DNA from: Alphaproteobacteria bacterium
GTDB taxonomy: Bacteria; Pseudomonadota; Alphaproteobacteria; RF32; CAG-239
Direction: 5' to 3'
Assembly (NCBI GenBank): GCA_017961285.1
Contig: JAGCXO010000037.1
Location: 16,097 to 80,096, forward strand
DNA length: 64,000 bases
Of the stretch, positions 5,565 through 36,422 are shown one piece after another. Made by a program: the position numbers and the translations under genes. The notes beneath the pieces were generated by a model, which was not told the origin of the DNA, searched no databases, and saw nothing but the letters and a program-made list of their open reading frames with translations. Position 1 is the stretch's first letter. Each line of letters opens with the position of its first letter.

Positions 5565-6326
5565 ATGAATGATATTTGGCAAGAACGTAAAAAACAAAAC
5601 GCAATCCGCGCATACAAAAAAGCAACCCTCAAAAAAAACATTACGAAGGCAGTAATACTAATCATAATTCTCAACTTCTTATTTCCACAATATATAAAAA
5701 GAGTAACATATCCTTTTTTGTTTGGGCATAATTCCACAGAACCAATGCAAATATCCAACGAAGATTCTTTTCAAGATATTACGTCAGCACCAATTACATT
5801 CAAGAAATCAGGCTATTCTTATATATTACAACCAAAAGTAAAATACTCGGTAACAGGAAGAGTAGGGTATGTCGATGCCTACGACACCCTATGGAACAAA
5901 TTTTATCGCGGCCACTCACAACATCGATATATAAACCTTGTTCCCAAAGACATATTTTTAGTTATCGGAAGCATGGCTAAGCCAGAAATTTTCTCTATGT
6001 TCAAATTTGAGCACGAAGAGCGGGGCGGAAGCATAAGTTGCAAGGGAGCAAAATATCATTGCTACCCCCATATAAAACAAGCCGAACTAAACAATTATCA
6101 TCCCATACCGGCAACATCAAAAATCAATCTCGGGCTCAGCACACTTTTACCAAACGACATTCTTTATATGGAAGGCTATCTTGTAGACGTTCCGCAAATG
6201 GGGTTGAGCACCGGCACAAGAAAAGAGCAAACTCACTCTAATATAATAATGAACGGCTACAACCCCGGCAAATGTTTCGTTCTATACACCACCAAAATAA
6301 TAATAAATGGTGTTATTTACGAATAA
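5565..6326 (+). CDS. Hypothetical protein with N-terminal membrane anchor
   Basis: 253-aa ORF with a basic N-terminus followed by one hydrophobic helix (AVILIIILNFLF). No family recognised. Confidence 0.55.
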   Translation: MNDIWQERKKQNAIRAYKKATLKKNITKAVILIIILNFLFPQYIKRVTYPFLFGHNSTEPMQISNEDSFQDITSAPITFKKSGYSYILQPKVKYSVTGRVGYVDAYDTLWNKFYRGHSQHRYINLVPKDIFLVIGSMAKPEIFSMFKFEHEERGGSISCKGAKYHCYPHIKQAELNNYHPIPATSKINLGLSTLLPNDILYMEGYLVDVPQMGLSTGTRKEQTHSNIIMNGYNPGKCFVLYTTKIIINGVIYE

Positions 6327-6369: not shown

Positions 6370-7362
6370 TCAGCCTCTTGCCGAAATTATTTCATGCATT
6401 TTTTTCTTATATTGTGTTTCTTTCCCTGCTTTAGCTTTGGCTTTGCGGGTTTCTTTCCTTTTTTCTTCCTTTATCTTTTTATCTTCGGCATTTTTTTGCT
6501 CTTTTTGAATTTTATCATTATGTGCCTTTATCTTCACATCAAAAGTGCGCTCGGCAGCCTCGGCAATTTCTCGCCTTGCCATAACTTCGGCAAATTCTAC
6601 GGAAGAAACATCAAAAGCTTGCGCAGCAGCGATTGATTTTTCATTATAAATATCCATAAATTTATTAACTGCCGGATCGCCTTTAACTCCCATAACTCTT
6701 GATTTCATCGGCTCATTAGGAATATTTTTTGCCATCTCGGTAAAATCTTTTCTATGTCTTCTTAAATGATCTTTATCAAAAAAATCATGCAAAAGTTTCT
6801 TTGTAGAGCGCAGAGAATCTCTACCATAAATTTTATCCATCATTTTACCGAAAACACCACGTCCTGGTTCCTTAATATCTTCATAAGAATCACCTTTACC
6901 GATGGTGCCCAAGACCTCTTTGGCATATTTCACAACAGCAGCATATCTTTTCCCAGATTTATCTTCATTATAAGCATCTGCCAAATCGTATGTAAGCTGT
7001 CTTGCCAAATCTCCCATATAAATATTATGAGTCTGAGCTTCCTTTGCCTGTTTCAACTTTTCAAAACCGGCATCATATTCATCTTTAGAAACCATATCAT
7101 ATCCTGATAAAAGCTTTTTCTTCATTTTTTGAATTTCTGCCGGCTCATAATATTTATCTTTATCAAGCTTAACATCAATATTTTTACGATTAGCAAATAC
7201 ATCATACAATTCCGGATTATCATCGCGGGAGAGGGTAACTGATAGCAAATCATCAATACCATGCACCTGAAATTCGATAGCATCTTTCGAATATTGTTTT
7301 CGTATTGGGCGCTTAGAACCATACGCAAAATCATTCAATCTTTCTCTAGTTTTTGTAACCAT
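6370..7362 (-). CDS. Hypothetical highly charged protein with Lys/Arg-rich C-terminal tail
   Basis: 330-aa ORF with an AGGAGT RBS and no signal peptide. The C-terminal ~50 aa read KIQKEQKNAEDKKIKEEKRKETRKAKAKAGKETQYKKK. No family recognised. Confidence 0.6.
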   Translation of the reverse strand: MVTKTRERLNDFAYGSKRPIRKQYSKDAIEFQVHGIDDLLSVTLSRDDNPELYDVFANRKNIDVKLDKDKYYEPAEIQKMKKKLLSGYDMVSKDEYDAGFEKLKQAKEAQTHNIYMGDLARQLTYDLADAYNEDKSGKRYAAVVKYAKEVLGTIGKGDSYEDIKEPGRGVFGKMMDKIYGRDSLRSTKKLLHDFFDKDHLRRHRKDFTEMAKNIPNEPMKSRVMGVKGDPAVNKFMDIYNEKSIAAAQAFDVSSVEFAEVMARREIAEAAERTFDVKIKAHNDKIQKEQKNAEDKKIKEEKRKETRKAKAKAGKETQYKKKMHEIISARG

Positions 7363-12710: not shown

Positions 12711-13514
12711 ATGCGAGTAATTATTAACTCCAACTACCAGCAATGCGCACAATGGGCAGCCGAATATGTTGCATATAAAATCAAAGCCGCACATCCGACA
12801 AAAGAAAAACCTTTTGTAATGGCATTGCCTGCAGGAAGCACCCCTCTCGGTATGTTCGAAGCATTGATTTCAATGTTCAAAAAAGGGAAAATTTCATTTC
12901 AAAATGTTGTGTTTTTCAACATGAACGAATATGTCGGCTTAGCTCCCGAAGATAAAAACAGTTTCAATTACTATTTATGGGACAATTTCTTTCAACATAT
13001 TGATATCAGAAAGAAAAATATTCACCTCTTGAATGGGCAAACCAAAGATTTTATGCAAGAATGTGCATCTTATGAAAAACTGATCCGCAGCTACGGAGGA
13101 ATAGATCTGCTTATTGCCGGAATTGGCGAAGACGGGCATATTGCCTTCAACGAACCAGGTTCATCTCTCGGCTCTCGCACCAGAGTAAAGGCCCTAAACC
13201 GCAACACTATCAGAGCCAATGCCCGCTTTTTTAATAATAACGAAAATCTTGTCCCAAAATTGGTCGTAACCATGGGTGTTGCTACTATTATGGATGCCGA
13301 TGAAGTTATGCTTATTGCCACTGGCGATAAAAAAGCCGATGCAATTCGTTGCGCCATTGAAGGCAGTGTCAACCATATGTGCCCTGTAAGCATATTGCAA
13401 ATGCACCCTCATGCCTTGATTGTCTGCGACGAAGAAGCAACCTCAAAATTACAATCTGATATTGTCCGTTATTTTAATGATAACGAAAATACCAAATTCG
13501 GCAGAAAAATATAA
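12711..13514 (+). CDS. nagB: Glucosamine-6-phosphate deaminase
   Basis: LPAGSTPLGMF, FNMNEYVGL and GIGEDGHIAFNEPGSSL motifs. GGAG RBS. Confidence 0.9.
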   Translation: MRVIINSNYQQCAQWAAEYVAYKIKAAHPTKEKPFVMALPAGSTPLGMFEALISMFKKGKISFQNVVFFNMNEYVGLAPEDKNSFNYYLWDNFFQHIDIRKKNIHLLNGQTKDFMQECASYEKLIRSYGGIDLLIAGIGEDGHIAFNEPGSSLGSRTRVKALNRNTIRANARFFNNNENLVPKLVVTMGVATIMDADEVMLIATGDKKADAIRCAIEGSVNHMCPVSILQMHPHALIVCDEEATSKLQSDIVRYFNDNENTKFGRKI

Positions 13515-13531
13515 CTTTTTTGTGAAAAAAC

Positions 13532-13560
13532 TTGACAAAATTTTGATATACGGTTAAACT
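13532..13560 (+). promoter_or_regulatory. Sigma-70-like promoter
   Basis: TTGACA(13532-13537)-N17-TAAACT(13555-13560), about 50 nt upstream of the 13613 ORF. Confidence 0.5.
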
Positions 13561-13612
13561 AATCGTAATTATGATTATTATCGCAATTTTTTATCACTAA
13601 AACTTTAAAAAT

Positions 13613-13987
13613 ATGGAAAAAGCAAAAAAACTGGCAACGATTGCCACCTGTTGTGTAAGTGCTACCGCCATTATTTGTTTATTGTTTGTCTTATTGGGAC
13701 TTTTTTATACCCAAGAAGGCGGCATTAATACAAGTTTTTTATCGTGGACAATTCTGGGTTGCACTGCGCTGTTTGTCGTTGTATTATACATTGACATCTA
13801 CTTGTATAGCCGCGGAGATGTTTCCTTTTATTTGGTTTTCTTCTCCTTTCTCTTAGTCATTTCAGGCTTTGTGGCATTTGGCTTCTTGGACCTTATCGGA
13901 ACACATCCGATGTTCTGGCTCTCTTGCGGCGCTACATCACTGATGGCAATGGTTTGTTTGCTATACAATGCACATGCAGCACTATAA
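13613..13987 (+). CDS. Hypothetical small membrane protein (about 4 TM helices)
   Basis: 124-aa hydrophobic ORF bounded by a promoter-like box and a terminator. Confidence 0.55.
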   Translation: MEKAKKLATIATCCVSATAIICLLFVLLGLFYTQEGGINTSFLSWTILGCTALFVVVLYIDIYLYSRGDVSFYLVFFSFLLVISGFVAFGFLDLIGTHPMFWLSCGATSLMAMVCLLYNAHAAL

Positions 13988-13994
13988 AACAATT

Positions 13995-14029
13995 ATCCCT
14001 TATGGTTTTTATCATAAGGGATTTTTTTA
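13995..14029 (+). terminator. Rho-independent terminator
   Basis: ATCCCTTATG (13995-14004) pairs with CATAAGGGAT (14013-14022), followed by TTTTTT. Confidence 0.85.
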
Positions 14030-14076
14030 TATTACTGTAAATTGAATAATTTTTTTCACAAAAAACAAATAAATAA

Positions 14077-14105
14077 TTGCCAAAATTGTTTTTAAGGATT
14101 ATACA
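14077..14105 (+). promoter_or_regulatory. Sigma-70-like promoter upstream of infA
   Basis: TTGCCA-N17-TATACA. Confidence 0.45.
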
Positions 14106-14138
14106 TCAATAAAAATGAACAACATTTAAGGATTTTTT

Positions 14139-14357
14139 ATGAAAGAAGAATTGTTAGAATTAACCGGCGAAGTTGTAGAAAAGCTCCCTAATGCCATGTT
14201 CAGGGTAAAACTTGAAAACGGAGTTGAAATCTTGGCAATGACTGCCGGAAAGATGCGCAAATTTCGCATCAGAGTAATGGTTGGCGACAAAGTAGATATT
14301 GAAATGACCCCATACGACCTTACCAAAGGACGTATAACTTTCCGCCACAAAGACTAG
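14139..14357 (+). CDS. infA: Translation initiation factor IF-1
   Basis: 72 aa. The sequence ...[60 protein letters not shown] is near-canonical IF-1. Confidence 0.97.
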
Positions 14358-14358
14358 A

Positions 14359-14937
14359 TTATAAATACTTAATCAGTAAAAAACCACCTATTAAAAGAAT
14401 AAAAAATATTATCGAGAGCAATCCAAAGTGTTTCTCGATAATTTTTTTAATCGGCTCTCCGAAAAACCTCAGCAATGCGGCAATTATAAAGAAGCGCAAT
14501 CCCCTAGCCACAACGGATGCTATACCGAAAACCCATATATTCATACCGACGACACCGCTGGCGATGGTAATAACTTTATACGGAAAAGGTGTAATTCCCG
14601 CGCCCAAAACAATCCAAGCACCATATTCATTATAATATCTGCTGAATTGCTCAAATTTTTCCAAATAGCCATAAAAATTGAGCAACGGCTTTGCAATCAA
14701 ATCATAACCGAGAAAACCTATCAAATAACCGAAATATCCGCCGATAACGCTTGCAATTGTTGCCACCAAAGCAATTTTCCATGCCCTCTTTGGTGTTGCA
14801 ACAATCATCGGAATAAGCATTATATCAGGAGGAATTGGGAAAAAAGAACTTTCAATAAAAGCAACTACAGCCAATGCCCACATAGCATTTCTTCCCGAAG
14901 CGGCATCAACCATCCATTGATATATTTTCTTAGTCAT
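14359..14937 (-). CDS. DedA/YqaA-family membrane protein
   Basis: FIESSFFPIPPDIMLIPM motif and multi-pass hydrophobic profile. Confidence 0.8.
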   Translation of the reverse strand: MTKKIYQWMVDAASGRNAMWALAVVAFIESSFFPIPPDIMLIPMIVATPKRAWKIALVATIASVIGGYFGYLIGFLGYDLIAKPLLNFYGYLEKFEQFSRYYNEYGAWIVLGAGITPFPYKVITIASGVVGMNIWVFGIASVVARGLRFFIIAALLRFFGEPIKKIIEKHFGLLSIIFFILLIGGFLLIKYL

Positions 14938-14976
14938 CTCAAATAACTCTTAAAAAAAATCTCCCTGCCACGGATA

Positions 14977-15570
14977 TTATTTAAGAATTGCTTTTAAATC
15001 TCCATCTTTTGTAATTTTTTCCACATAAAAAGTCTTTGCCATCGCAAATTTTTTGCTCAACTCAAGATATTTATCTCGATTACAACAAAGTCCTATTGCC
15101 CTTACCGCATTCTTTTCCAAAAACACTTTTGCGGCTCTCATATCATGAATTCGCAAAAACGATTGCTTTTCTTTTAGCAAATAATCCTCCTGTTTCTTTG
15201 GCTCAAAGAGCAAAAAATCATATTTTTTTCCGCCTTGACAATAAGCGCCGGCAACCTCCCCGAGTTTCTCATTAACCATAGACCTCAAAACATAATGAGA
15301 AACACCGGCATGCCAAGCTTCTTCAATATTTTTACAAATCACAGCCAGCGGAGTTTTAAAATTTTTAACCAAATATCCGATCAACATTTTATAATCCGGA
15401 TCCTTCACTTCGGCATCAACCACATACAAATCCGGCGAAAGCTCCTTAGAATACTTTGTCATTTTATAAACATTATTCGTAGCAAAAACCTCAATTCCTT
15501 TCTTCTCCAGCAATTTTGCGTAAAAATCCGCCCGTTCTTTCTTATCATCCACAATAAAAACCTTCCCCAT
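14977..15570 (-). CDS. Receiver-domain-like protein (probably degenerate pseudo-receiver)
   Basis: VFIVDDKK ... DLYVVDAEV ... PLAVICKN ... HYVLRS follows the CheY beta1/3/4/5 pattern, but the conserved Thr/Ser and Lys positions are replaced. No output domain recognised. GGAGGAG RBS. Confidence 0.45.
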   Translation of the reverse strand: MGKVFIVDDKKERADFYAKLLEKKGIEVFATNNVYKMTKYSKELSPDLYVVDAEVKDPDYKMLIGYLVKNFKTPLAVICKNIEEAWHAGVSHYVLRSMVNEKLGEVAGAYCQGGKKYDFLLFEPKKQEDYLLKEKQSFLRIHDMRAAKVFLEKNAVRAIGLCCNRDKYLELSKKFAMAKTFYVEKITKDGDLKAILK

Positions 15571-15668
15571 AATCTCCTCCCTTCCTGGGGTATAATATGG
15601 GATTTATTAAAGAATTTTCACCTGTCTTTTAGTTCTAAACAATATATCAAAAAGCAACAGTATTTTTA

Positions 15669-15697
15669 TTGACAAAAAAGCAAACTCTTGTTAGAAA
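15669..15697 (+). promoter_or_regulatory. Sigma-70-like promoter
   Basis: TTGACA-N17-TAGAAA, 50 nt upstream of the 15747 ORF. Confidence 0.45.
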
Positions 15698-15746
15698 AAG
15701 AACTCAAAATTGATATTATTATGTCTTATGTTTAATTTTTTGTATT

Positions 15747-16901
15747 ATGGAAAAACACCTATTATTCTCTCTGTTGGATAAAATTAATCCAACCACCGAC
15801 CAACTTCGCGAATATACGGAGTTGCGCACAAATGGAAAATTTCCCCTTCCGCTATTTTGGCGTGACCATTTAGGAGAATGTTTTTTCTCCAACAAATGGT
15901 ATGAAAACGCAACTGTCCTCGGCATTGCTTTGCCTGACAAAATCATCTTAAGAAGAACGATTGAGCCGGCCAAATGGCAAAAGGAACAAATCAGCACCCA
16001 AGACTTAGTCGAGCATGCAAAGCAAATTCATCCCGATGCCCTGCCCCTCCATTTCGGCGGCGACTCATCAGACGGCATCATTAATATGCTGTTGTTGCAT
16101 GGTCCTAAATACTTGGAAACAAGTATTTTGCTCGAAAAACACGGCATCAAAATGCCTAGTTTATTTGAGCCGATGGCCTATGTCGCCGGCGGAGATGCAA
16201 TTCTTGCGCAAGAAAACTTCAATATCCGTGTCTTTCAAATTGGTCAAAGGGAACAAAAATCGGTTCCCATCAAGCTCATCGACAAGATGATAGTCCTCAT
16301 CCCCGTCTCAGGATACAACTTTAAAGTCGTTTCTCAAGAGTCACAGCCGGAAAAACACGACCTGGATGTCGGAACTGGCATTAACAGTTGCGACTTTCCG
16401 CCAGATCGAACCACGCAAGAAAAATTCGAGTTTTCACTCCCTTTATTTCTGCGCGACACTAATGGCAAATATTTTGTCAGCAACAAAATTGTCGACGGTT
16501 GCACGGTTGAGGGTATTGCCCTGCGCGACACTATCATCCTGCGCCAGACAATTGCTCCCTGCAAAATAGACAAAGATGAACCGACGCAAGCCGATTTGTT
16601 TGAACTTGCCAAACAAGTTCACCCTTGCGCTCAACCACTTTATTTTGCCGGTTTTCCTTTCGGTGGCGGCATTATTACCCTGCTCTTGATCGACAAGAAA
16701 AAGTACATCCAAACATCCGAATTGCTCAGGAGATATGACGTAACCATGCCGGACATCAACAAAGAACTCTACTTTGTTGGTGGAAACTACCATCAAGGAG
16801 GTTATGTCAACGAAATCAAAGTAGGATGTTGGTCCGGAGGATCGAGGATTAAAGGCATCGAAGAAATGCTTCTTGCCATTCCTCGCAATCAAGTTGAGTA
16901 A
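15747..16901 (+). CDS. Hypothetical protein made of two tandem copies of an unrecognised ~190-aa domain
   Basis: aa 1-197 and 198-384 align colinearly (KFPLPLFWRD/FSLPLFLRD, VLGIALPDKIILRRTIEP/VEGIALRDTIILRQTIAP, QIHPDALPLHFGG/QVHPCAQPLYFAG). No signal peptide. Confidence 0.7.
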   Translation: MEKHLLFSLLDKINPTTDQLREYTELRTNGKFPLPLFWRDHLGECFFSNKWYENATVLGIALPDKIILRRTIEPAKWQKEQISTQDLVEHAKQIHPDALPLHFGGDSSDGIINMLLLHGPKYLETSILLEKHGIKMPSLFEPMAYVAGGDAILAQENFNIRVFQIGQREQKSVPIKLIDKMIVLIPVSGYNFKVVSQESQPEKHDLDVGTGINSCDFPPDRTTQEKFEFSLPLFLRDTNGKYFVSNKIVDGCTVEGIALRDTIILRQTIAPCKIDKDEPTQADLFELAKQVHPCAQPLYFAGFPFGGGIITLLLIDKKKYIQTSELLRRYDVTMPDINKELYFVGGNYHQGGYVNEIKVGCWSGGSRIKGIEEMLLAIPRNQVE

Positions 16902-16912
16902 ATGTAAAACCA

Positions 16913-16946
16913 AAGGCGGATATGAATATCCGCCTTTTCTGTTTTA
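16913..16946 (+). terminator. Rho-independent terminator
   Basis: AAAGGCGGATAT (16913-16924) pairs with ATATCCGCCTTT (16927-16938), followed by TCTGTTTT. Confidence 0.85.
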
Positions 16947-16977
16947 AAGATTTGGCAAAAATTTTATCGCACCTGTG

Positions 16978-17006
16978 TAACAAAAATGTCATTTTACAAT
17001 ATAATC
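16978..17006 (+). promoter_or_regulatory. Possible promoter of the giant gene
   Basis: GTAACA-N17-TATAAT (TATAAT at 17001-17006). Confidence 0.35.
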
Positions 17007-17063
17007 AAAATATTATATACTGATTGTAGTTATGATTGTATCTTCGGATAAAGGGGAAAAGCC

Positions 17064-20000
17064 ATGCCAAACAGTATTGAAACACCGATTGCCGTAAACA
17101 CTGAAGAAGTAACAATTGACGACAATATTTATATCAAAGAAACCTATGAAGACGGAACATATGCCTATAAAGACCAAGAAGGCAACGTCACCAGCGTTTA
17201 TTATCCCAGCGGTTATACTAAAGTTACCGCACTAGAAGACGGCGACGTCCTAAGTTTTTACGATGGCGGCAAAATCAAATCGGTAGAATCCTGCAACACC
17301 CATTCCTCATATACTGTTCTGCACGACAATGGTGAAATATATGAAAGCAACCCCCAATACGATTACAAACTGATAAATTCGCAAAATTATGATGAAAACG
17401 GCAATCTCGAAGAAGCAACACTCTCCGACGGCACCGAAATCAGTTACTATGAGAACGGCTATTGCGAAGAAATAATTACAGACGACGAAGATATCATCAA
17501 ATTCAACGATAACGGACAAGTAACCTCAATCCAATCCAGCGGAAAACATTCATCTTTCAGTTTTGACCACGCCAACGGCGAACACTGGCAAACTGCGCCC
17601 GAAGATGACTATACCGAAATAGAAGAGCAAACTTGGTATGACAACGGACAAACAAAAAGCAAAGATAACTTTGATGACAGCTACACCGCATATTATGAAA
17701 ACGGATATATAGAAACCTACTACAGCCCCGATCACGACCAAATAGAATTTGACGAAAATGGCAATCTAACCTCCATACATGCCTCCGGGAAACACTCCTC
17801 ATACGAACTTCAGCATGCCAACGGCGAAACATGGAAAAGCGATCCTCAATATGACTATACAAATACCAAACAACAAAAATGGCAGGACGGCAATCTTGTC
17901 AGCACCAGCGTAGATGTCAGTAACGAAGAAGTGGAAAAAATGGTAAAAGAGCGCGCCCATTGGCTTTGTGAACAATATATAGAAGCCACAGACCGACGTT
18001 TGGCAGAAATTCAAAGCTGTAACTCAACTGAAAAAACTCAATATGTAAAAGATATGTTTGACAGACTTGGTCATGGTCGAATATATGACAAATATTGCAT
18101 CGTTGGACAGTTAAATTGTCTGCAGGACGTATGCGACAGCAGCGGCAATCTTAACGATTCATATCACAACACCACCAATTGCGCAAACTTCATAGCCAAT
18201 ATGAAAAAGAATGGTTATGCCGACTGCTTCAGCAAAAATCCGAAAAAAGAAGATATTCACCCCGGAGATATGATTTTTACACCACGTGATAAAGATGGCA
18301 ACTACCATGTTGTTTCGGTAAAAGAAGTTTATCAGGATGAAAAAGGTGAAACTCACGTAATTGTCAACAGCTTCAACAGTGACGGAACAAAAGAGTTCAA
18401 AGGAAACGGCAACTACACCGTATTTAACACCGAAAAATATATGGAAAAAGCCCTCTATAAGGAACTGGAAGAACAAAATTTGTGGCAACAGGAACAAGAT
18501 AACGGACAATACATAGCCTCAAACGGCGATACTCGTCAAATGGATGCGGTAAAATATGCCGAAATGAATACTTATTTGACCCGCGGAATGGAACCTGAAT
18601 CAGATATTCAGCTTGCCGATGCCGTCGTTGAACATGATAATACATCACAAACTGTTCCGGAAGCTCCTCAACAAGAATCCCAAGAAGACCAAATAGTCAC
18701 AGGCCCAATTGACACCAAATATTACGAGGATGGCACACTGGCCTATGAAGAATATCCTGACGGCAGCGAAAAAAGCTATCGTAAAAACGGAAAGTTACAA
18801 TATGAAAAACTGCCTGATGGAACCGAAAAAACTTATTACATAAGTGGTAATTTGAAATATGAAAAACATCCCGATGGCACCGAAAAAAGCTATGATAATA
18901 CGGATGATTACTCCTTACAATATGAAAAACTTCCCGACGGCACTGAAAACACCTACAGTGATGGCAAGTTAATAGCAACAAAATCTAAAGACGGAGATTG
19001 GAATTACCAATCAACCCCTAAATATGCATCTCCATCACATACAAAAATTGAATATTATCCCGACGGCACCACACCAAAACATGTTGAACGGCCTGATGGA
19101 GTTATAATAGATTATTATGAAAATGGTCAATATAAACATTATGAGTGGCCTAGTGGAGATAAAGCAGATTATTATGAACATAACGGTATTCTTAAACATT
19201 ATGAGTGGGCTGAAGAAGAAAAAATAGTGGAAAAAGCCGACTTTGATGAGAAAGGTGTTGTAAAATATCAAGAAGATTCTGATGGCACCAAAATCTACTA
19301 TTATGAAAATGGTATACCCAAACACAAAGAACTTCCGGACGGCACAATAATCGACTATGATGAAAAAGGACAGATAAAAGAAGAGAATCAGTCAAATCCA
19401 CCAAGCATTGAAAAAACAGAAGACCAAATACTCGCTTCCAATCAACAAACACAAGATAACACTCAAACAACAACTACTATTACAAAAGAAGAGGAAAACA
19501 ATATGACAGAACAACAAACAAATGGAAATGATAATTGCCATGTAGAATATTATGACAACGGCAATATAAAATATGAAGAATGGCCCGATGGCTCAAAGAA
19601 CTTTTATTACGAAAGCGGAGCATTACAGCGCGCTGAACGTGATGATATGATAGTCGACTATTATGAGAACGGAAATTATAAGCGCTTAGATTATAAAGAC
19701 GACAATGTTATAGAATATTATGAAAACGGCAATATAAAAACCGCAGAATATCCTGAAGGCGATTATCTTGAATTCAACGAAAAAGGTGAACCCACACGTA
19801 TTCTTTCCTCTTTAACATATCCATCATACACCATCACACGGGGAGATAATCAAACTGAATGGACAAGCGACCCGCAATATGACTATACCCAAATAGCTGA
19901 ACAAACTTTTGAAAACGGTAAAGTTGTAAAAGAAATAAAATCCGAAGAACGCCAATTAGCACAAGAGAATGCTGCAGATTTTCATGAATATATTGCCCCT

Positions 20001-22508
20001 GAACATGCACAGAAAGATACCTCACCAAAATCAAAAACATACTACGAAAACGGCAATGTAAAATATGAAGAATTGGAAGACGGCTCAAAGAACTTCTATT
20101 ATGAAAACGGAAAATTGCAACGCACCGAAAGCGACGAAAGAAATGTTGACTACTACGAAAACGGTAGTTACAAGCGCGTTGACTACAAAAACGGCAATGC
20201 AACAGACTATTACGAAAACGGTTATGTTCAAAAGACCACTTGCGTCGAAGGTGATGTAATAGAGTTTGATGAGCAAGGACGTGCAACACATATAAAATCA
20301 TCAGGCAGATTTATCTCTTATGAAGTAAATCATGCCAACGGCGAAAAATGGCACAGCCCTGCACTGCGCAATTATACCAAAATAAAAGAACAAACATGGG
20401 AAAACGGCAAACTTAAAGATATTACAAGATTTACCAAAGAAGAAAGAGCCGCCAACTATAACAAATACCACAACCCGGACGGTCAAGCAATCATCAATGA
20501 CAACACCGAAGCCATCAATGATGTTGCAGATATTGCCCCCCAACCTCAAAATTCTGACATCATCACCAGAGAAAATCAGGTTGATGATGCCAATCTGAAA
20601 TGGTATGGAAACGATCAACTTGCTGAGGAAACTTTAGACAGCGGACTTTCTCGTAAACATTCCGCAGACGGCAAACTGCTCACCAGAACCTACCCCGGCA
20701 CAGGAAAGCCTTCTTTCTCAGAGCATTTACTAGGTAAAAAAGCTGAAGCAGAAGTTACCTACACATTTTATCCCAACGGACACCTAAAATCACAAACAAA
20801 TGCCGACGGCACCACCACCACTTTTGAAGAAAACGAAAAATTACCACAAGCCACAAGCATAAAATTACCAAACGGTGCTACTATCCATTATGATGCTGAA
20901 GGCAAAATGACCGCCGAAGAACTTTCTGACGGACGCAAAATTACCTATTCTGACAAAGGAAATGTGGAAACATATGAGTGGCCGGACGGCTCAAAAGCCA
21001 CCTATTATGAGACCGGTGAAGCCAAAAGCTGGCAGGAAAACAATACCGAAACATTTTATTATCCAAATGGAGGAGTTAAACAAGTCAATTACAACGACGG
21101 CAATCAAATAAAATTTGATGAAAATGGATCTCCTACATATATCAAATCATCAGGAAAAGCTAATAAAATCATTGTCAAAGATGCTAATGGAAATACTTTT
21201 TGGGAAAGCGACCAAAAATATGATTATACTAAAATACAAGAACAAGTTTTCTACGATAACGGAAATATAAAATACGAAAAGTTTACCGACGGCACTGAAA
21301 AAGCTTATACACGCGATGGCACTTACCATACTGAAAAACTTCCCGATAATACCCTAAGAACTTATGATGAAGGTAAAATAGAATACGAAAAACTTCCCGA
21401 TGGAACTGAAAAAACAAGTTTCCATGAAGGTTACAAAACGTATGAAAAACTTCCCGATGGAACTGAAAACACCTACCGCAATGGAGAGCTAATGTCCACC
21501 AAAATCCCCGGTGGAGAATGGCAGTATGTAGGAGCTAAAGTTGAGCCTTCAGAAGATGAAAAAATTGAATATTACCCGAGCGGCGCAGAAAAACACATTG
21601 AATTCTCTGATGGTCGAAAATACGATTTTTATGAAAATGGTATGCCAAAACATAAGGAATGGCCAGATGGGCAAAAAGAAGATTTCTATGAAAATGGATC
21701 TGTTAAACATGTCGAGTGGAATGATGGTGCCAAAGGCGATTTTTCTGAAAACGGTATACAAGAATGTCAAATTTATCCTGACGGCACAAAAAAATACACT
21801 CACCCCAACGGATTGTTAAAACATCAAGAAAATCCAGACGGATCAAAAGTTGATTATTATGAAAACGGAATGCTCAGCAAAAAAACAGATAAAGACGGCA
21901 ATGAAACCAACTATGATAAAGAAGGCAATCAGATAACAGAAAAATCTACTCATCAAAAAGAAGAAAACTCTGACGAACTTGCCGATAAAACCGAAACAAA
22001 AAACAATAAAAAATCACATAAATCAAAATCATCAAATGCCGAATATCACGAAAACGGCTACATAAAAACCTATAATTCACCCGACGGCGATGTCTTAGAG
22101 TTTGATGACAGAGGAAATATAACTCATATCCAATCTTCCGGCAAAGTCTCAAGCTATGATATTGAACACCCCAATGGTGAACATTGGCAAAGTCCTGCTC
22201 AATACGACTATACAAAAATTGAAGAGCAAACCTACGAAAACGGCGAGTTAAAATCACACGTCGACAAACAAAAAGAAGATGATCAGAAAAAAGCTCGCGA
22301 AGAAGAACGTAAGAAAAGAAGAGAAGAACGCAAAGCCAGAAGACTTGAGCGACTCGCCAAACTAAAAGCCCTGATTGCAGAGCGCTATGCCGCAGAAAAC
22401 GGCGATTCTCCGACGGGAATATTCCAACGTCATCGCCAAAATGACAATCAAGAGCGCCAAAGCCCAGTTATGCAATGGTTCAAAAACAGACAATCACAAA
22501 ATAACTAA
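17064..22508 (+). CDS. Giant (1814 aa) MORN-like repeat protein with embedded Cys/His papain-fold-like domain and basic C-terminal tail
   Basis: Single uninterrupted ORF with an AAGGGGA RBS. Dozens of YYENG.../E(K/W)(L/P)PDG(T/S)EK.. units resemble MORN/YwqK-type repeats. No N-terminal signal peptide. Confidence 0.85.
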   Translation: MPNSIETPIAVNTEEVTIDDNIYIKETYEDGTYAYKDQEGNVTSVYYPSGYTKVTALEDGDVLSFYDGGKIKSVESCNTHSSYTVLHDNGEIYESNPQYDYKLINSQNYDENGNLEEATLSDGTEISYYENGYCEEIITDDEDIIKFNDNGQVTSIQSSGKHSSFSFDHANGEHWQTAPEDDYTEIEEQTWYDNGQTKSKDNFDDSYTAYYENGYIETYYSPDHDQIEFDENGNLTSIHASGKHSSYELQHANGETWKSDPQYDYTNTKQQKWQDGNLVSTSVDVSNEEVEKMVKERAHWLCEQYIEATDRRLAEIQSCNSTEKTQYVKDMFDRLGHGRIYDKYCIVGQLNCLQDVCDSSGNLNDSYHNTTNCANFIANMKKNGYADCFSKNPKKEDIHPGDMIFTPRDKDGNYHVVSVKEVYQDEKGETHVIVNSFNSDGTKEFKGNGNYTVFNTEKYMEKALYKELEEQNLWQQEQDNGQYIASNGDTRQMDAVKYAEMNTYLTRGMEPESDIQLADAVVEHDNTSQTVPEAPQQESQEDQIVTGPIDTKYYEDGTLAYEEYPDGSEKSYRKNGKLQYEKLPDGTEKTYYISGNLKYEKHPDGTEKSYDNTDDYSLQYEKLPDGTENTYSDGKLIATKSKDGDWNYQSTPKYASPSHTKIEYYPDGTTPKHVERPDGVIIDYYENGQYKHYEWPSGDKADYYEHNGILKHYEWAEEEKIVEKADFDEKGVVKYQEDSDGTKIYYYENGIPKHKELPDGTIIDYDEKGQIKEENQSNPPSIEKTEDQILASNQQTQDNTQTTTTITKEEENNMTEQQTNGNDNCHVEYYDNGNIKYEEWPDGSKNFYYESGALQRAERDDMIVDYYENGNYKRLDYKDDNVIEYYENGNIKTAEYPEGDYLEFNEKGEPTRILSSLTYPSYTITRGDNQTEWTSDPQYDYTQIAEQTFENGKVVKEIKSEERQLAQENAADFHEYIAPEHAQKDTSPKSKTYYENGNVKYEELEDGSKNFYYENGKLQRTESDERNVDYYENGSYKRVDYKNGNATDYYENGYVQKTTCVEGDVIEFDEQGRATHIKSSGRFISYEVNHANGEKWHSPALRNYTKIKEQTWENGKLKDITRFTKEERAANYNKYHNPDGQAIINDNTEAINDVADIAPQPQNSDIITRENQVDDANLKWYGNDQLAEETLDSGLSRKHSADGKLLTRTYPGTGKPSFSEHLLGKKAEAEVTYTFYPNGHLKSQTNADGTTTTFEENEKLPQATSIKLPNGATIHYDAEGKMTAEELSDGRKITYSDKGNVETYEWPDGSKATYYETGEAKSWQENNTETFYYPNGGVKQVNYNDGNQIKFDENGSPTYIKSSGKANKIIVKDANGNTFWESDQKYDYTKIQEQVFYDNGNIKYEKFTDGTEKAYTRDGTYHTEKLPDNTLRTYDEGKIEYEKLPDGTEKTSFHEGYKTYEKLPDGTENTYRNGELMSTKIPGGEWQYVGAKVEPSEDEKIEYYPSGAEKHIEFSDGRKYDFYENGMPKHKEWPDGQKEDFYENGSVKHVEWNDGAKGDFSENGIQECQIYPDGTKKYTHPNGLLKHQENPDGSKVDYYENGMLSKKTDKDGNETNYDKEGNQITEKSTHQKEENSDELADKTETKNNKKSHKSKSSNAEYHENGYIKTYNSPDGDVLEFDDRGNITHIQSSGKVSSYDIEHPNGEHWQSPAQYDYTKIEEQTYENGELKSHVDKQKEDDQKKAREEERKKRREERKARRLERLAKLKALIAERYAAENGDSPTGIFQRHRQNDNQERQSPVMQWFKNRQSQNN
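17196..17903 (+). repeat. Three tandem ~82-aa coding repeats (aa 45-280 of the giant protein)
   Basis: Each unit is YYENGY..E...D.D.I.F + a ~48-aa module (F[DN]-[ED]-[NK]G..T.I.SSGKHSS....HANGE.W...P.YDYT....Q.W.[DN]G). Confidence 0.8.
17949..18398 (+). other. Putative papain-fold (CHAP / NlpC-P60-like) Cys-His domain inside the giant protein
   Basis: Candidate nucleophiles are C345 (DKYCIVGQ, nt 18096-18098) or C373 (TNCANF, nt 18180-18182). They are followed by HPGDMIFTPRDKDGNYH415VVSV and THVIVNSFN. This matches the GD(L/M)(I/V)F...H(V/I) pattern of these amidases. Confidence 0.4.
18720..19379 (+). repeat. Segmental coding duplication, copy 1 (aa 553-772)
   Basis: Colinear with aa 1396-1622. 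Both contain YEKLPDGTEKT, YEKLPDGTENTY, KIEYYP.G...H and (D/F)YENG..KH.EWP.G. Confidence 0.75.
19539..20423 (+). repeat. Two tandem ~165-aa coding repeats (aa 826-955 and 992-1120)
   Basis: YYDNGNIKYEEWPDGSKNFYYESGALQRAE..VDYYENGNYKRLDYK aligns with YYENGNVKYEELEDGSKNFYYENGKLQRTE..VDYYENGSYKRVDYK. Each copy ends in the 48-aa module. Confidence 0.8.
21249..21929 (+). repeat. Segmental coding duplication, copy 2 (aa 1396-1622)
   Basis: See copy 1 at 18720-19379. Confidence 0.75.
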
Positions 22509-22531
22509 GTTATAAAAAACTTGACAAAAAT

Positions 22532-22571
22532 AATGTTCTGAAGTAAGACAACACTTCAGAACATTATTTTT
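22532..22571 (+). terminator. Rho-independent terminator of the giant gene
   Basis: Perfect 13-bp stem: AATGTTCTGAAGT (22532-22544) pairs with ACTTCAGAACATT (22553-22565), followed by ATTTTT. Confidence 0.9.
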
Positions 22572-22584
22572 AAATATAACTATT

Positions 22585-23202
22585 ATGAGAACCTTAGAAT
22601 TGTTAAAAAGGTTGGAAAAAATAGATCCGACCGATGAGCAACTTGCATTATGCATGGAAATACGGAAGAAAAATTTTCCTCTTCCGTTATATGTAAAACT
22701 CCCCAACGGAGAACATCTGTTGACACGCAAACTGGAAGACCGTATGATTGTCGAGGGAATTGCCACTGAACTCGGTATATATTTAACAGCCGAAATCCAC
22801 CCTATCCAATTTGGCAATAACGAAGTTACGGTTGCCGATTTGTATATTGCCGCAAGAGAAGTCCATCCCGATGCACGTCCTCTTACCAAAGACGACATTT
22901 TCGGAAAAAACAAACACAACCTCTCTTCGCTTATATCCCTAGACTCAACATTGGAAATTATGCAATATGAACTCAACCGTCTCAAATGCTGTGGTAGCAG
23001 AAGTATTGAATTTCTCAATCACAATTTTGAGTGTTATGCTCTCCCTAAACAAGCATTGCTTTCCGACACACATATAGCCCGATACAACGCCTATATTGAG
23101 GATTATGAATGTGAAGTTGCCATCAACGAGATTTATAAACTCGGATTATTTATTCCCGAAAAAAACATAAAAAATTATTATTATGGTAGAAAAGACAATT
23201 AA
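22585..23202 (+). CDS. Hypothetical protein; N-terminal third copy of the domain found in ORF 15747-16901
   Basis: NFPLPLYVK sits at the same offset as KFPLPLFW in the upstream ORF, and IVEGIA and TVADLYIAAREVHPDARPL are also shared. The C-terminal ~90 aa are unrelated and Cys-containing. Confidence 0.65.
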   Translation: MRTLELLKRLEKIDPTDEQLALCMEIRKKNFPLPLYVKLPNGEHLLTRKLEDRMIVEGIATELGIYLTAEIHPIQFGNNEVTVADLYIAAREVHPDARPLTKDDIFGKNKHNLSSLISLDSTLEIMQYELNRLKCCGSRSIEFLNHNFECYALPKQALLSDTHIARYNAYIEDYECEVAINEIYKLGLFIPEKNIKNYYYGRKDN

Positions 23203-23407
23203 GCAAATTGCCGCCGATGTTTACGATTTACCTGAGGGTTGTATCGAAGAAAATGACAAGTTTTCCTCTCTCGGCGACAGTCTCGACCACATCGAGATGG
23301 TAAGAAGAATGGAAGACGAATTCAATGTACAAATCTCCATCAAAAAAATGGAAGATCTCCCAACCATCGGAGATGCAATAAAATATGTTGAAGCTCGTCT
23401 TAAATAA
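23183..23407 (+). CDS. Acyl/peptidyl carrier protein-like (orphan ACP)
   Basis: 74 aa. SLGDSLDHIEMVRRMEDEFNVQI matches the ACP LG(A)DSLD..E(L)V...E.EF helix II region. The putative phosphopantetheine Ser is at nt 23279-23281. The ORF overlaps the upstream ORF by 20 nt. Confidence 0.75.
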   Translation: MVEKTIKQIAADVYDLPEGCIEENDKFSSLGDSLDHIEMVRRMEDEFNVQISIKKMEDLPTIGDAIKYVEARLK

Positions 23408-23414
23408 GAAAATT

Positions 23415-23445
23415 TCCCTCGCAATTCAATTGCGAGGGATTTTTA
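23415..23445 (+). terminator. Rho-independent terminator
   Basis: TCCCTCGCAATT (23415-23426) pairs with AATTGCGAGGGA (23428-23439), followed by TTTTT. Confidence 0.85.
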
Positions 23446-23474
23446 TTGACAAAAAATTCTTTATCTGCTACACA
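23446..23474 (+). promoter_or_regulatory. Sigma-70-like promoter
   Basis: TTGACA-N17-TACACA immediately after the terminator. The -10 element is weak. Confidence 0.35.
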
Positions 23475-23512
23475 AAAAATCCAAGAAGTATTATTCACAA
23501 AATTATAAAAAT

Positions 23513-23926
23513 ATGAAAAAAACATCTTTGTCCGTTACAATGACTATGGCTTTTATGACATTCGGCTTCATTTTAGCCGGACTGATTAATCTCATCAATG
23601 AGAGTAATATTAACAATACCGTAATAATTGCCGCAACAGGAATTATTGCTACAACGAGTTTAATCATGCTCTTAATCAATACCATAATAGCTGCCAAAAT
23701 CATTGACAGCCCGCAGTTGGTTGAAAGAGTTCCGAACAAACTTATCGGAGCAAGCTTATCCTTAACAGCCCTGTTGTTAACCGCGAGTATTGCCGCATTT
23801 ATCCTGGCAATACTGGTGAAACCGGCACAAAATTTGTATCTAGCAATGTTTATACTGATGGGCTTACTATCTCTGCCGCAATCAGTAACAAGCGCTAACA
23901 TAGACTTCAGATTAAGATTAAACTAA
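23513..23926 (+). CDS. Hypothetical membrane protein (about 4 TM helices)
   Basis: 137-aa hydrophobic ORF. I preferred it to the overlapping minus-strand ORF because a promoter box precedes it and a terminator follows it. Confidence 0.5.
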   Translation: MKKTSLSVTMTMAFMTFGFILAGLINLINESNINNTVIIAATGIIATTSLIMLLINTIIAAKIIDSPQLVERVPNKLIGASLSLTALLLTASIAAFILAILVKPAQNLYLAMFILMGLLSLPQSVTSANIDFRLRLN

Positions 23927-23931
23927 AACAA

Positions 23932-23958
23932 AACCCGCAATTAGAAATTGCGGGTTTT
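23932..23958. terminator. Bidirectional hairpin terminator between convergent genes
   Basis: AACCCGCAATT (23932-23942) pairs with AATTGCGGGTT (23946-23956). An A-run lies upstream and TTG downstream. Confidence 0.7.
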
Positions 23959-23962
23959 GCGT

Positions 23963-24814
23963 TTATTTATCCTTCTCTATAAATTCTTTAATTTTATCAA
24001 GCATTTTCAATGCATCATTGCGCCCAAGCTCATACATTTCCCGCACAATATCCAAATTTTGCTCCATTTTGCTTATTTTCACCAACCTACTCGGCCTCAA
24101 CACAAAAGCCCTGCCCGCTTTTTCCTGTTCCACTACATAATCAAGTTCTGCATTATACACTTTATACCTGTTCAAACAAGTTTCCACAAACTTGGGATAT
24201 TTTCTATACAACCATGAAAATAACCAGATAAAATGCGGCTTTCTTTTTCTATAACCTTGCGGACGTGTCAGCACTACAATATTTTTCTCAAAACCCAAGT
24301 TCTCCGCGGCTTTCAATGGAATACTGTCAGCAATCCCGCCATCCAACAGCTTTTTGCCGCCAACCTCAACAATTTGTGAGACCAAAGGCATTGAAGCCGA
24401 TGCCCTGATATAATCAATATCGGCAAACATATCATTGCATTTGATATATTCCGCCTGCCCTGTCTCAACATTTGAACAAACCGCATAAAATTCAATGCCG
24501 GAACGCATAAAAGCCTCATTATCATATGGATCGAGCTTTTCCGGCAACTCGTGATAACAAAACTCCGTTTCAACCATATTTCCGGTCAAAAACAAAGACT
24601 TAAAGCTCATAAATCGATAATCACGTCCATATTTTATATTATAGCGAATACTTCTTCCTGCCTGCATTGAGGCATAGGAACAACCATGAATTGCCCCTGC
24701 CGAAACACCGATAACCCCGTCGGCAATCAAACCGTTTTCTAACAAGACATCCAATACACCGGCAGTATATATCCCGCGCTTTGCCCCGCCTTCCAAAACC
24801 AAACCTATTTTCAT
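23963..24814 (-). CDS. Patatin-like phospholipase
   Basis: LEGGAKRG oxyanion motif, GVSAG (GxSxG) nucleophile, and a later DGG(I) catalytic Asp motif. Confidence 0.88.
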   Translation of the reverse strand: MKIGLVLEGGAKRGIYTAGVLDVLLENGLIADGVIGVSAGAIHGCSYASMQAGRSIRYNIKYGRDYRFMSFKSLFLTGNMVETEFCYHELPEKLDPYDNEAFMRSGIEFYAVCSNVETGQAEYIKCNDMFADIDYIRASASMPLVSQIVEVGGKKLLDGGIADSIPLKAAENLGFEKNIVVLTRPQGYRKRKPHFIWLFSWLYRKYPKFVETCLNRYKVYNAELDYVVEQEKAGRAFVLRPSRLVKISKMEQNLDIVREMYELGRNDALKMLDKIKEFIEKDK

Positions 24815-24929
24815 ATTTTTATTTCCCTACACAAACTTTCTCGCCTATAATTATTACAACAACATATATAGCAATATCAATATACTAGCAACAAAAAATT
24901 AAAAACCTGTTTAATCAATTTACAAAACA

Positions 24930-24959
24930 TTGACTCATCCGATTCGTTAAACATATAAT
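24930..24959 (+). promoter_or_regulatory. Sigma-70-like promoter
   Basis: TTGACT(24930-24935)-N18-TATAAT(24954-24959), 70 nt upstream of the 25029 ORF. Confidence 0.55.
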
Positions 24960-25028
24960 TTTCCAAAAAAGCTGCCGATTTAGAGAAGTTAATTTTGATA
25001 ATTTTAATAAATTGAGAGGAAATTAAAA

Positions 25029-25442
25029 ATGATTAACAAGTACACAATAATTGCAACACTTGCTCCTATACTAGGAAAAGCAGCTTATGATGATTATAAA
25101 AATTTGGTTTTACGAAAAAAAGACATGGAAAAAGCCGGATTAATTGGTGGAGATAATTACTATCACCGTCTAGCTATGTGTGAAAATGCACAAAAAGGAT
25201 TACCTCATGTAATTACATCTTTTAGTGGCGGTATTGCAAAAGAATTAAAAGATATATTTTGTAAATCAACAGGATTTTGCGATAAAAAAGATACTCTCAT
25301 AAATGCAATAAAAGATAGTTGGAAAGATATGGAAAATAATGTTGAAGGTCTTTATCATGGTTTGACAGATCCGAATACTGATTGTAAAATATGGCTAAAT
25401 GATTTGGATTATAGGACAAACACATGGAAAACAATAAAATAA
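25029..25442 (+). CDS. Hypothetical protein with serum-amyloid-A-like core motif
   Basis: 137-aa ORF with a GAGAGGAA RBS. DMEKAGLIGGDNYYHRLAMCENAQKG resembles the conserved SAA core [26 protein letters not shown]. Confidence 0.6.
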   Translation: MINKYTIIATLAPILGKAAYDDYKNLVLRKKDMEKAGLIGGDNYYHRLAMCENAQKGLPHVITSFSGGIAKELKDIFCKSTGFCDKKDTLINAIKDSWKDMENNVEGLYHGLTDPNTDCKIWLNDLDYRTNTWKTIK

Positions 25443-25567
25443 AAATATTTTTTAATCACCTGAGAAAATATTGCAAAGATATATTGTTTTCACTTGCATT
25501 TATTTGTGGAATAATTTTTATCTGCTTTCTAATTGCATTTTTTGTAGATCCGGTGTGGAATAAATAA
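25424..25567 (+). CDS. Tiny (47 aa) single-pass membrane ORF, not in the supplied ORF track
   Basis: Hand translation gives MENNKIKIFFNHLRKYCKDILFSLAFICGIIFICFLIAFFVDPVWNK. The ATG overlaps the end of the upstream ORF by 19 nt. Confidence 0.4.
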   Translation: MENNKIKIFFNHLRKYCKDILFSLAFICGIIFICFLIAFFVDPVWNK

Positions 25568-25629
25568 AACAAAAACTTGTTTTCACACATCACAAAACCG
25601 TAACTACATTTAGATTACGTGAGGAATAA

Positions 25630-25749
25630 ATGGGAAAAGTAAGAAAAATAGTAGAAATACTATATAAAATTGCAATTTGGGGATTTTGCATAGTTGTACT
25701 TTGGATTTTAATCTCATTTATTTATAGCGGTTTATCAATCGGAAAATAA
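25630..25749 (+). CDS. Tiny (39 aa) single-pass membrane ORF, not in the supplied ORF track
   Basis: Hand translation gives MGKVRKIVEILYKIAIWGFCIVVLWILISFIYSGLSIGK. A GAGGA RBS lies 5 nt upstream, and a terminator-like hairpin follows. Confidence 0.45.
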   Translation: MGKVRKIVEILYKIAIWGFCIVVLWILISFIYSGLSIGK

Positions 25750-25760
25750 ATCGCCATACA

Positions 25761-25809
25761 AAAAACCGCCCCTAAGGACGGCTTTTTCTTTACTGGTAGG
25801 CGCGCAGGA
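25761..25809 (-). repeat. Direct repeat copy A: terminator hairpin plus 16-nt fragment of the tRNA-Lys 3' end
   Basis: AAAAACCGCCCCTAAGGACGGCTTTTT...TGGTAGGCGCGCAGGA. The stretch 25794-25808 is identical to 25990-26004. Confidence 0.8.
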
Positions 25810-25957
25810 CGGCCGAAGAAAAAAGTGCTGTAATACACTTTTTTTCAAGGAGACACAATGAGACTTGCTTTTGCAAGCCAGCGACAGCAACGCACAGCAA
25901 AAGCAAAGTCGGAATTGAACGAACCCTTGGGTTCGAATCCCTTTACTTTCTATATGA

Positions 25958-26005
25958 CAAAAGCCGCCCTAAGGACGGCCTTTTTTCAATGGTAGGCGCG
26001 CAGGG
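25958..26005 (-). repeat. Direct repeat copy B: tRNA-Lys terminator plus the genuine tRNA 3' end
   Basis: AAAAGCCGCCCTAAGGACGGCCTTTTTT...TGGTAGGCGCGCAGGG. On the minus strand this is the tRNA 3' end followed by a hairpin and T-run. Confidence 0.8.
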
Positions 26006-36396: not shown

Positions 36397-36422
36397 ATTT
36401 ATATATAATGTGGAGAATTACC

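Follow-up and report, generated by a model that had tools for sequence, protein, structure and literature searches.

A 64,000-nucleotide stretch of an Alphaproteobacteria bacterium genome (assembly GCA_017961285.1, contig JAGCXO010000037.1, positions 16,097 to 80,096), here termed the window, carries a gene for a giant repeat protein with genes built of a domain, or unit, of about 190 amino acids (aa) on either side. The two-unit gene A (384 aa, 15747..16901) lies upstream and was recognised as an open reading frame (ORF) with an internal repeat. It is followed by the giant, G (1814 aa, 17064..22508), by the single-unit gene B (205 aa, 22585..23202) and by a gene for an acyl carrier protein (ACP)-like product of 74 aa (23183..23407; Pfam PP-binding, E=5e-10). 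All four ORFs are on the + strand at the positions given in a preliminary description of the locus; A and B flank the 1814-aa ORF, and B overlaps the ACP-like ORF by 20 nt, as was said there. The same description proposed that the domain is a dedicated partner of the giant. Comparison with related genomes points elsewhere: the units appear to form a small family of autonomous gene cassettes, and their position on the two sides of the giant appears to be a rearrangement peculiar to this genome.

The internal duplication of A, reported earlier, is borne out, as its halves align with each other (BLASTP E=2e-33, 41% identity over 158 aa). Unit 1 (15747..16337, +) is of the U1 type, which has an N-terminal helical hairpin, and it matches positions 1-190 of a unit hidden Markov model (HMM) with E=7e-65. 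Unit 2 (16338..16898, +) is of the C type, without the hairpin (unit HMM E=3.5e-71); it is the most conserved unit in the family, with 75% identity to the P0002 C-unit. B was taken to be a third copy of which about 110 aa are present. It is indeed a third copy, matched by both halves of A (E about 1e-15), but it is not a partial one: B is a complete unit that covers HMM positions 1-190 (E=1e-62) and aligns over aa 1-192 with the N-type units of homologues (E=1e-36).

Does the unit belong to a known family? Scans of A and B against Pfam, NCBIfam, PADLOC and PHROGs gave no unit match, a per-member Pfam scan of 32 units (E<=1) gave scattered single-member noise only, and neither A, B nor the unit profile found a match among PDB sequences. 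The domain was called unrecognised before, and it keeps that status in the family libraries, among PDB sequences and, as seen below, among structures, where no match is significant. A word-indexed search of 5.8 billion proteins found 10 proteins, all of them two-unit and 375-403 aa long; the word-indexed homolog search with B returned B itself and nothing else. When 1.84 billion representatives were searched exhaustively with an HMMER profile, 24 matches were obtained, of which 22 are genuine clusters; P0025 and P0029 were dropped as repeat-protein artefacts. No units were found in a viral scan or by plasmid tblastn. The members comprise two-unit paralogs (P and Q), single-unit proteins (U1 and U4), lone single-unit and partial proteins (the partial ones being C-type-only or truncated) and a distant single-unit subfamily of ~180 aa with the motif LFxxFDACxPT..IHPKAxPL. 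The named source genomes are 'Alphaproteobacteria bacterium' metagenome-assembled genomes (MAGs), one of them from yak omasum. The ~190-aa units are thus a tiny, undescribed, lineage-restricted family in uncultured gut Alphaproteobacteria.

Only G58 and L130 are invariant across the 32-unit alignment, and no catalytic-type residues or Cys pairs are conserved across these units. In the hairpin, the first sheet and the HPxAxPL helix the mean pairwise column identity is 0.31-0.39, against 0.15 in the C-terminal sheet; we infer that the unit is a binding scaffold with a variable face. An AlphaFold2 model of B, made from a unit-level alignment of 32 sequences, has a predicted local distance difference test score (pLDDT) of 90.5 and a predicted TM score (pTM) of 0.83. 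An earlier two-unit model (pLDDT 64) is too poor to be read alone. In the model of B, two N-terminal helices precede four strands, several helices and four more strands, and the hairpin is packed on the domain (pLDDT about 90). Foldseek searches of the PDB and a viral library with this model gave nothing at E<=1e-3. Above that threshold, snaclecs are best in the PDB (E about 0.025, TMt 0.43-0.50), and the viral library (BFVD) offers a phage DUF1566 protein (E=2.6e-3, probability 1.0, TMt 0.59) and a poxvirus C-type lectin (E=7e-3), the viral matches having TMt 0.59-0.61. C-type-lectin-like proteins top the Foldseek lists for both models, the good and the poorer. The predicted fold, a helical hairpin with an alpha/beta body, may therefore show a weak and distant likeness to C-type-lectin and DUF1566 domains.

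Could the units be exported lectin-like effectors or adhesins, in which the hairpin directs non-classical export or docking and the variable sheet binds glycans of host or prey? The weak fold matches are all to extracellular proteins of the C-type-lectin-like domain (CTLD) and DUF1566 groups, conservation is highest in the hairpin and the C-terminal sheet varies, and the DUF1566 domain of Legionella Lcl, itself C-type-lectin-like, binds glycosaminoglycans (PMC11162425). The structural matches are not significant, however, and in the model the hairpin packs against the domain. Pfam scans of the window and the other loci found no secretion-system genes. The copies also have no signal peptide, which agrees with what was said of them earlier, as judged by inspection of the N-termini and the modelled N-terminal amphipathic helices alone, with no predictor. 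Export of the units as lectins has at best a slim chance of being right.

The arrangement of the units in related genomes, whose loci are given L numbers here, is informative. The left flank of the locus is conserved (abhydrolase, glucosamine-6-P isomerase, infA, DedA and a receiver-like gene), and so is the right flank (patatin, a 137-aa ORF and a U32 peptidase). In the window the receiver-like gene (197 aa, 14977..15570, -; Pfam Response_reg E=3e-6, below cutoff) is divergent from the first cassette and forms the left edge of a variable island in all versions. The patatin-like phospholipase gene (23963..24814, -), with 89-93% identity to its orthologues, belongs to the flank and lies outside the variable gene set. 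Between these two genes five versions of the island were seen. The order in L005/L006/L007 is U1, P, Q, ACP-like gene, U4 and membrane protein; in L003/L004 it is P, three unrelated opposite-strand genes, Q and ACP-like gene; in L013 it is giant, U1, Q, ACP-like gene and U4; and in L008 it is giant, U1 and Q, after which the contig ends. The window version consists of U1 fused to the C-unit of Q, the giant, the N-unit of P, the ACP-like gene and a membrane protein. The last is a multi-pass protein of 137 aa (23513..23926, +), a member of the variable island with 54-58% identity to its orthologues and missing from L003. The three genes between P and Q in L003 (7164-9822, -) encode a PPDK_N-domain protein, a SIR2-family protein and a nitroreductase, and this insert further shows that the island site takes foreign cassettes. 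SIR2 proteins are often found in defence systems.

The giant is present in three of the five island versions (window, L008 and L013). In L008 and L013 it is upstream of all units, with no bracketing, and in L003 and L005/L007 intact units and the ACP-like gene are present without it. Identity of the abhydrolase flank gene to that of the window is 93-95% for L013/L008 and 78-80% for L005/L003; the window groups with L013 and L008, and the giant thus marks one subclade. Units are also found at six other chromosomal sites (L012, L010, L011, L014, L001/L002 and the gyrB-polA arrays L016-L019); neither a giant nor an ACP lies within 8-10 kb of them. The L012 site belongs to the giant-bearing MAG that contains L008 and gives it a second unit locus. 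In L016-L019, which come from another lineage, tandem arrays of one to three single-unit genes of the distant ~180-aa subfamily (L016 679-2561, L017 376-1662, L018/L019 7370-7915) stand at a different conserved site, beside gyrB-polA-PBP1.

The neighbourhood comparison suggested in the preliminary description thus gives a divided answer. Units and giant are adjacent in the window, L008 and L013, and two islands and six sites have units without the giant. A dedicated partnership is not borne out, given the greater number of units than of giants, the presence of the giant in 3/5 islands only, the six giant-free sites, a gene order that is not conserved and separate terminators. Since the units of relatives are usually free-standing without the giant, the bracketing provides no evidence of such a partnership. 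An optional link between giant and units is possible, to judge from the adjacency.

How did the bracket arise? Residues 1-186 of A share 68-72% identity with the stand-alone U1 of L005/L007/L008/L013, and the linker and second unit share 67-75% with the Q C-unit. The DNA breakpoint falls in the interval 16275-16310, where a unit ends in the conserved 'FIP'. By these matches A is an in-register recombinant of U1 and Q. The terminator after A is the Q terminator: the hairpin AAAGGCGGAT..ATCCGCCTTT, a GC-rich stem followed by a T-tract (16912..16937, +), has its orthologue in the hairpin that follows Q in L013. The DNA of the giant cassette is shared between window 16957-18590 and L013 4111-5743, including the promoter-like boxes of the giant (16977..17021, +). 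These boxes, TTTACA-17-TATACT at 16993-21, were pointed out earlier and are kept upstream of the L013 giant; they would seem to move with the giant cassette.

At the other side of the giant, B has 59-60% identity over 195 aa to the P N-unit in L003/L005/L007, and B with its upstream DNA matches P of L005 and L003; P is missing in L013 and L008. Between giant and B is a 20-bp AT-rich hairpin (22525..22572), found by hairpin scan and DNA homology, whose DNA is homologous to the regions upstream of P and Q in L005/L003. B is thus a truncated P joined to the ACP-like gene. In relatives a gap of about 113 nt with a terminator separates Q from the ACP-like gene, so that the B-ACP overlap in the window is a result of the P truncation and not a conserved coupling. 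Both the bracket and the overlap are, by these comparisons, rearrangement products unique to this genome.

Hairpin terminators were said to separate the genes. That at 16912-16937 stands as described; that at 22525-22572 is present but is the weaker as a + strand terminator, because its stem was scored on the minus strand only. Every island cassette in the window and in L013 has its own terminator, and the island hairpins are of two related sequence types, AAAGGCGGAT..ATCCGCCTTT and TCCCTCGCAATT..GCGAGGGA. The second type follows the ACP-like gene in the window (23415..23439, +) and is found after the ACP-like gene and U4 in L013. Hairpins of the two types are located at window 16912-16937 and 23415-23439 and at L013 9210-9234, 9891-9915, 11159-11185, 11514-11540 and 12197-12225. 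The recurrence of two related types suggests that genes were duplicated along with their terminators, and the repeated hairpins could serve as recombination sites. Tandem DNA repeats were looked for and none was found, and an Rfam scan of window 13000-26000 gave no match.

The giant is rich in repeats. It is built of 19-aa MORN_2/YD-like repeats (Pfam RHS_repeat 60.5 bits, cutoff 22; MORN_2 37.9 bits, cutoff 29.6), encoded by 57-nt repeat families, together with a larger module that recurs about five times. Its orthologues in L008 and L013 show 51% and 56% identity, respectively. A central Cys/His domain (aa 285-513; 17916..18602, +) is the most constrained part, with 76-77% identity between giants versus about 51% for the whole protein. 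C345, C357, C373, C388, H399, H415 and H431 are conserved in 3/3 giants, in the motif run ...VCDSSG..NCANF..HPGDMIFTP..NYHVVSV..THVIVNS. The order of Cys and His residues in all three is compatible with NlpC/P60, the catalytic residues needing a structure to be assigned. The Pfam NLPC_P60 model (PF00877) aligns to the domain with E=0.048 and 14.1 bits, under the cutoff of 23, and no match was found among PDB sequences. A word-indexed homolog search with the central domain returned nothing, and one viral and two metagenome scans for it were equally empty. The C-terminal region, a charged coiled coil and its tail, is conserved among the three giants, and no signal peptide or trafficking domain was found in the giant. 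An Rhs shell was considered and rejected, as the core motifs DPxGL and PxxxxDPxGL are missing in 3/3 giants. An 80-aa Glu/Arg-rich charged ORF of the L013 island (12784-13026, -), which does not occur in the window, echoes the coiled-coil C-terminus.

Are the units immunity proteins, chaperones or adaptors of a giant effector, which neutralise or escort its NlpC/P60-like domain, with the giant-less units as orphan copies of the kind known from Rhs and contact-dependent inhibition (CDI) loci? All three known giants are within the unit island, and the units diverge rapidly and deeply, vary in copy number and are kept in the absence of the giant as orphan immunity genes are. The central domain is strongly conserved and resembles NlpC/P60 in motif order. 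Yet the enzyme-like domain lies centrally and is conserved more than any other part of the protein, and the giant carries no detected secretion or trafficking domain, no Rhs core motifs and no variable C-terminal toxin. The genes show no conserved order or co-transcription, as terminators lie between them, and units occur at six other sites, including the second locus in a giant-bearing MAG. A peptidoglycan amidase would, moreover, need periplasmic immunity, whereas no signal peptides were seen on inspection of the units. We regard this explanation, the main rival to the one preferred below, as unlikely.

The ACP-like ORF scores 39.9 bits against Pfam PP-binding (PF00550; cutoff 20.8), and the Ser of its GDSLD motif aligns with S36 of E. 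coli AcpP. It is below all NCBIfam cutoffs for a housekeeping AcpP (best 48.4 vs 66). Its orthologues (e.g. L005 11271-11516 and L013 11269-11505) are 32-49% identical and keep the attachment-site Ser; the DSL context becomes SSS in L005 and NSR in L013. By this pattern the protein may no longer be a conventional carrier protein. Units that work with it, by binding, loading or using an acyl- or aminoacyl-carrier in a small lipid or secondary-metabolite pathway possibly tied to the neighbouring patatin lipase, would account for an ACP-like gene directly downstream of a unit gene in 4/4 island versions with the region visible, for the overlap with B and for the conserved Ser. It is hard to reconcile such a pathway with the decay of the D-S-L context, with the terminator and about 113 nt that part Q from the ACP-like gene in relatives, and with the lack of any ACP at the six other unit sites. 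Nor does the island contain a ligase, phosphopantetheinyl transferase or synthase, or the units conserved catalytic residues, and patatin is part of the conserved flank. A carrier-protein pathway is accordingly rated very unlikely.

Fusions, truncations and rapid divergence could also mean that the units are decaying remnants with no present function. Nonsynonymous (dN) and synonymous (dS) divergence speak to this. Between the window and L013, flank genes have dN of 0.006-0.05 and dS of 0.29-0.86. The island genes (receiver-like, U1, Q C-unit, giant N-terminus, ACP-like and TM124) have dN of 0.13-0.49 and dS from about 1 to >2, with some saturated, and dN/dS is 0.08-0.21. A dN/dS of about 0.2 or lower led to rejection of a pseudogene reading; the ORFs are intact in all lineages, motifs are strongly conserved and the predicted fold is confident, so that decay is extremely improbable. 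By their substitution patterns the island genes are functional and under purifying selection, and the island alleles are much older than the surrounding chromosome. Deep allele divergence with purifying selection is a pattern typical of strain-variable loci kept by recombination or frequency-dependent selection. The receiver-like protein is 66-71% identical to its orthologues, compared with 93-99% for infA, DedA and GlcN isomerase. For two small membrane proteins, at 13613-13987 (+) and 23513-23926 (+), identity to the orthologues is 47-58%; these two and the receiver-like protein have diverged as quickly as the units. The variable region thus reaches beyond the unit genes.

One unit gene has an unusual setting. 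L001 is part of a 125.7-kb JGI contig (3300037455 Ga0394157_0000079; L001 1-19611) in which the housekeeping genes can be translated only if TGA is taken as a sense codon. In its DnaK, 20 of the 31 in-frame TGAs align to Gly of E. coli DnaK, a usage that we take to be genetic code 25. Within the contig, a 4.8-kb segment (L001 8302-13094) has four consecutive ORFs, including a two-unit gene, with zero TGA, all TAA stops and a GC content above that of the flanks. The two-unit gene shares 68-71% identity with Q of L013 and L008 and is nested in the alphaproteobacterial Q clade; there is no giant or ACP near it in the contig. L002, assembled independently and 4.4 kb long, has three of the insert's four genes (225, 382 and 576 aa) and no junctions. 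The insert represents either a chimeric assembly or horizontal transfer between genomes that use different genetic codes. A copy in such a contig, with neither giant nor ACP, suggests a self-sufficient, transferable gene, and, if real, the TGA-free copy would be a rare documented case of gene transfer over a genetic-code boundary. Directly upstream of the two-unit gene are paralogous proteins of ~211 and 225 aa (L001 8368-9003 and 9162-9839), 42% identical and with CxxC...CxC motifs; no homologues of these were found in the other loci.

What, then, are the units? The reading preferred here, to which we give about an even chance of being correct, is that they are lineage-restricted autonomous binding-protein cassettes in hypervariable hot spots, the giant being a co-resident accessory cassette. 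The units would be cytoplasmic and probably non-enzymatic binding proteins, and each unit gene would be an autonomous single-gene cassette with its own promoter-like region and terminator. The cassettes would duplicate, fuse into two-unit proteins, truncate and shuffle via paralog recombination at a few chromosomal hot spots in uncultured, host-associated Alphaproteobacteria. The giant would be a further accessory cassette of one hot spot, the receiver-like to patatin island. An in-register crossover of U1 and Q, relocation of the giant cassette and truncation of P would have placed units on either side of the giant, and the P truncation would have set one unit against the ACP-like gene. The units may serve in strain-specific recognition or neutralisation, much as immunity proteins do, and would function with no need for the giant or the ACP-like protein.

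Several points weigh against this reading. The binding or 'immunity-like' role is argued from the evolutionary pattern, the weak fold likeness and the missing catalytic residues. Genomes that seem to be without a giant could encode one beyond the contigs examined. Giants outside the island, which would test independence, were looked for in homolog, metagenome and viral searches and none was found. All three giants adjoin units; as these loci are orthologous, they count as a single independent observation. Wherever the region is visible in an island version, an ACP-like gene is present with the units, and this is left unexplained by autonomous cassettes.

Should the units prove to be modules for strain-specific binding or neutralisation, they would represent a new fold family among bacterial conflict and recognition proteins and an entry point to the biology of an uncultured gut alphaproteobacterial clade. 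A larger proposal can also be put forward, that the giant and the CTLD-like unit cassettes, perhaps with the degenerate ACP-like protein, make up an effector-immunity or conflict system of gut Alphaproteobacteria that has gone unrecognised. The fold of the units would then be a new one for immunity or neutraliser proteins, and the cassettes would spread horizontally, even into a code-25 candidate-phyla-radiation bacterium. Taken together, this is a doubtful proposal and we do not expect it to hold. The practical value is moderate, a dedicated system being unsupported, and the locus is a clean natural example of paralog cassette fusion, truncation and relocation by in-register recombination.

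Elsewhere in the window, sizeable ORFs with no Pfam match at E<=1e-5 are located at 36408-38906 (+, 832 aa), 40456-41688 (-, 410 aa) and 61-2019 (+, 652 aa), and further ones at 4682-5488 (+, 268 aa), 5565-6326 (+, 253 aa) and 6370-7362 (-, 330 aa). The surroundings of these six are an ordinary housekeeping region (miaB-phoH-ybeY-corC-lnt, metK, recJ and folD).

How do the components compare with known systems? The unit shares with CTLD, DUF1566 and Lcl_C (PF07603) domains an element order of four strands, helices and then four or five strands, and, like the C-terminal domain of Lcl, it has no disulfides or Ca2+ motifs (PMC11162425). It differs in having no sequence match to PF07603 or PF00059, in Foldseek values that reach only E of 2.6e-3 to 2.5e-2, TM of 0.3-0.6 and a root mean square deviation of 5-8 A, and in an extra N-terminal helical hairpin; it also has no export signal and is seemingly cytoplasmic. 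Variable proteins of diversity-generating retroelements, which have the C-type-lectin (CLec) fold, similarly combine a CTLD-like scaffold with a variable C-terminal part. That origin was considered and rejected, as 14900-25500 contains no template and variable repeats; no reverse transcriptase is present among the ORFs scanned. In contrast to such elements, with their template/variable repeat pair, the diversity of the units would come from paralogy and recombination.

The nearest described analogues of the giant are the expanded MORN2 proteins (MORN2/YwqK type) of Fusobacterium. Both are built of MORN_2-type repeats of ~19-20 aa, both come from host-associated organisms and neither has an assigned function (PMC12940168). 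The Fusobacterium proteins mostly have signal sequences (PMC12940168), whereas the giant has none, and the giant adds a central Cys/His domain and a charged coiled-coil tail. That domain resembles NlpC/P60 papain-like amidases and peptidases in its Cys ... HPGD ... H ... H order and gives a weak Pfam alignment over the catalytic core. Unlike those enzymes, it is below the Pfam threshold, finds no PDB sequence match and occupies a central position in a repeat protein that lacks an export signal.

As a whole, the island shares features with the orphan immunity arrays of Rhs, CDI and type VI secretion systems. There too, tandem, fast-diverging small paralogs of variable number stand beside a large repeat protein in some strains and alone in others, with deeply diverged alleles between conserved flanks. 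The differences from polymorphic toxin systems are that the giant has no trafficking domain, Rhs core or variable C-terminal toxin, that there is neither an operon nor a fixed toxin-then-immunity order (the order differs between the window and L008/L013), and that no unit matches a known immunity family. Strain-variable arrays of paralog cassettes are known; what is new here is an array made from an unclassified, possibly CTLD-like domain.

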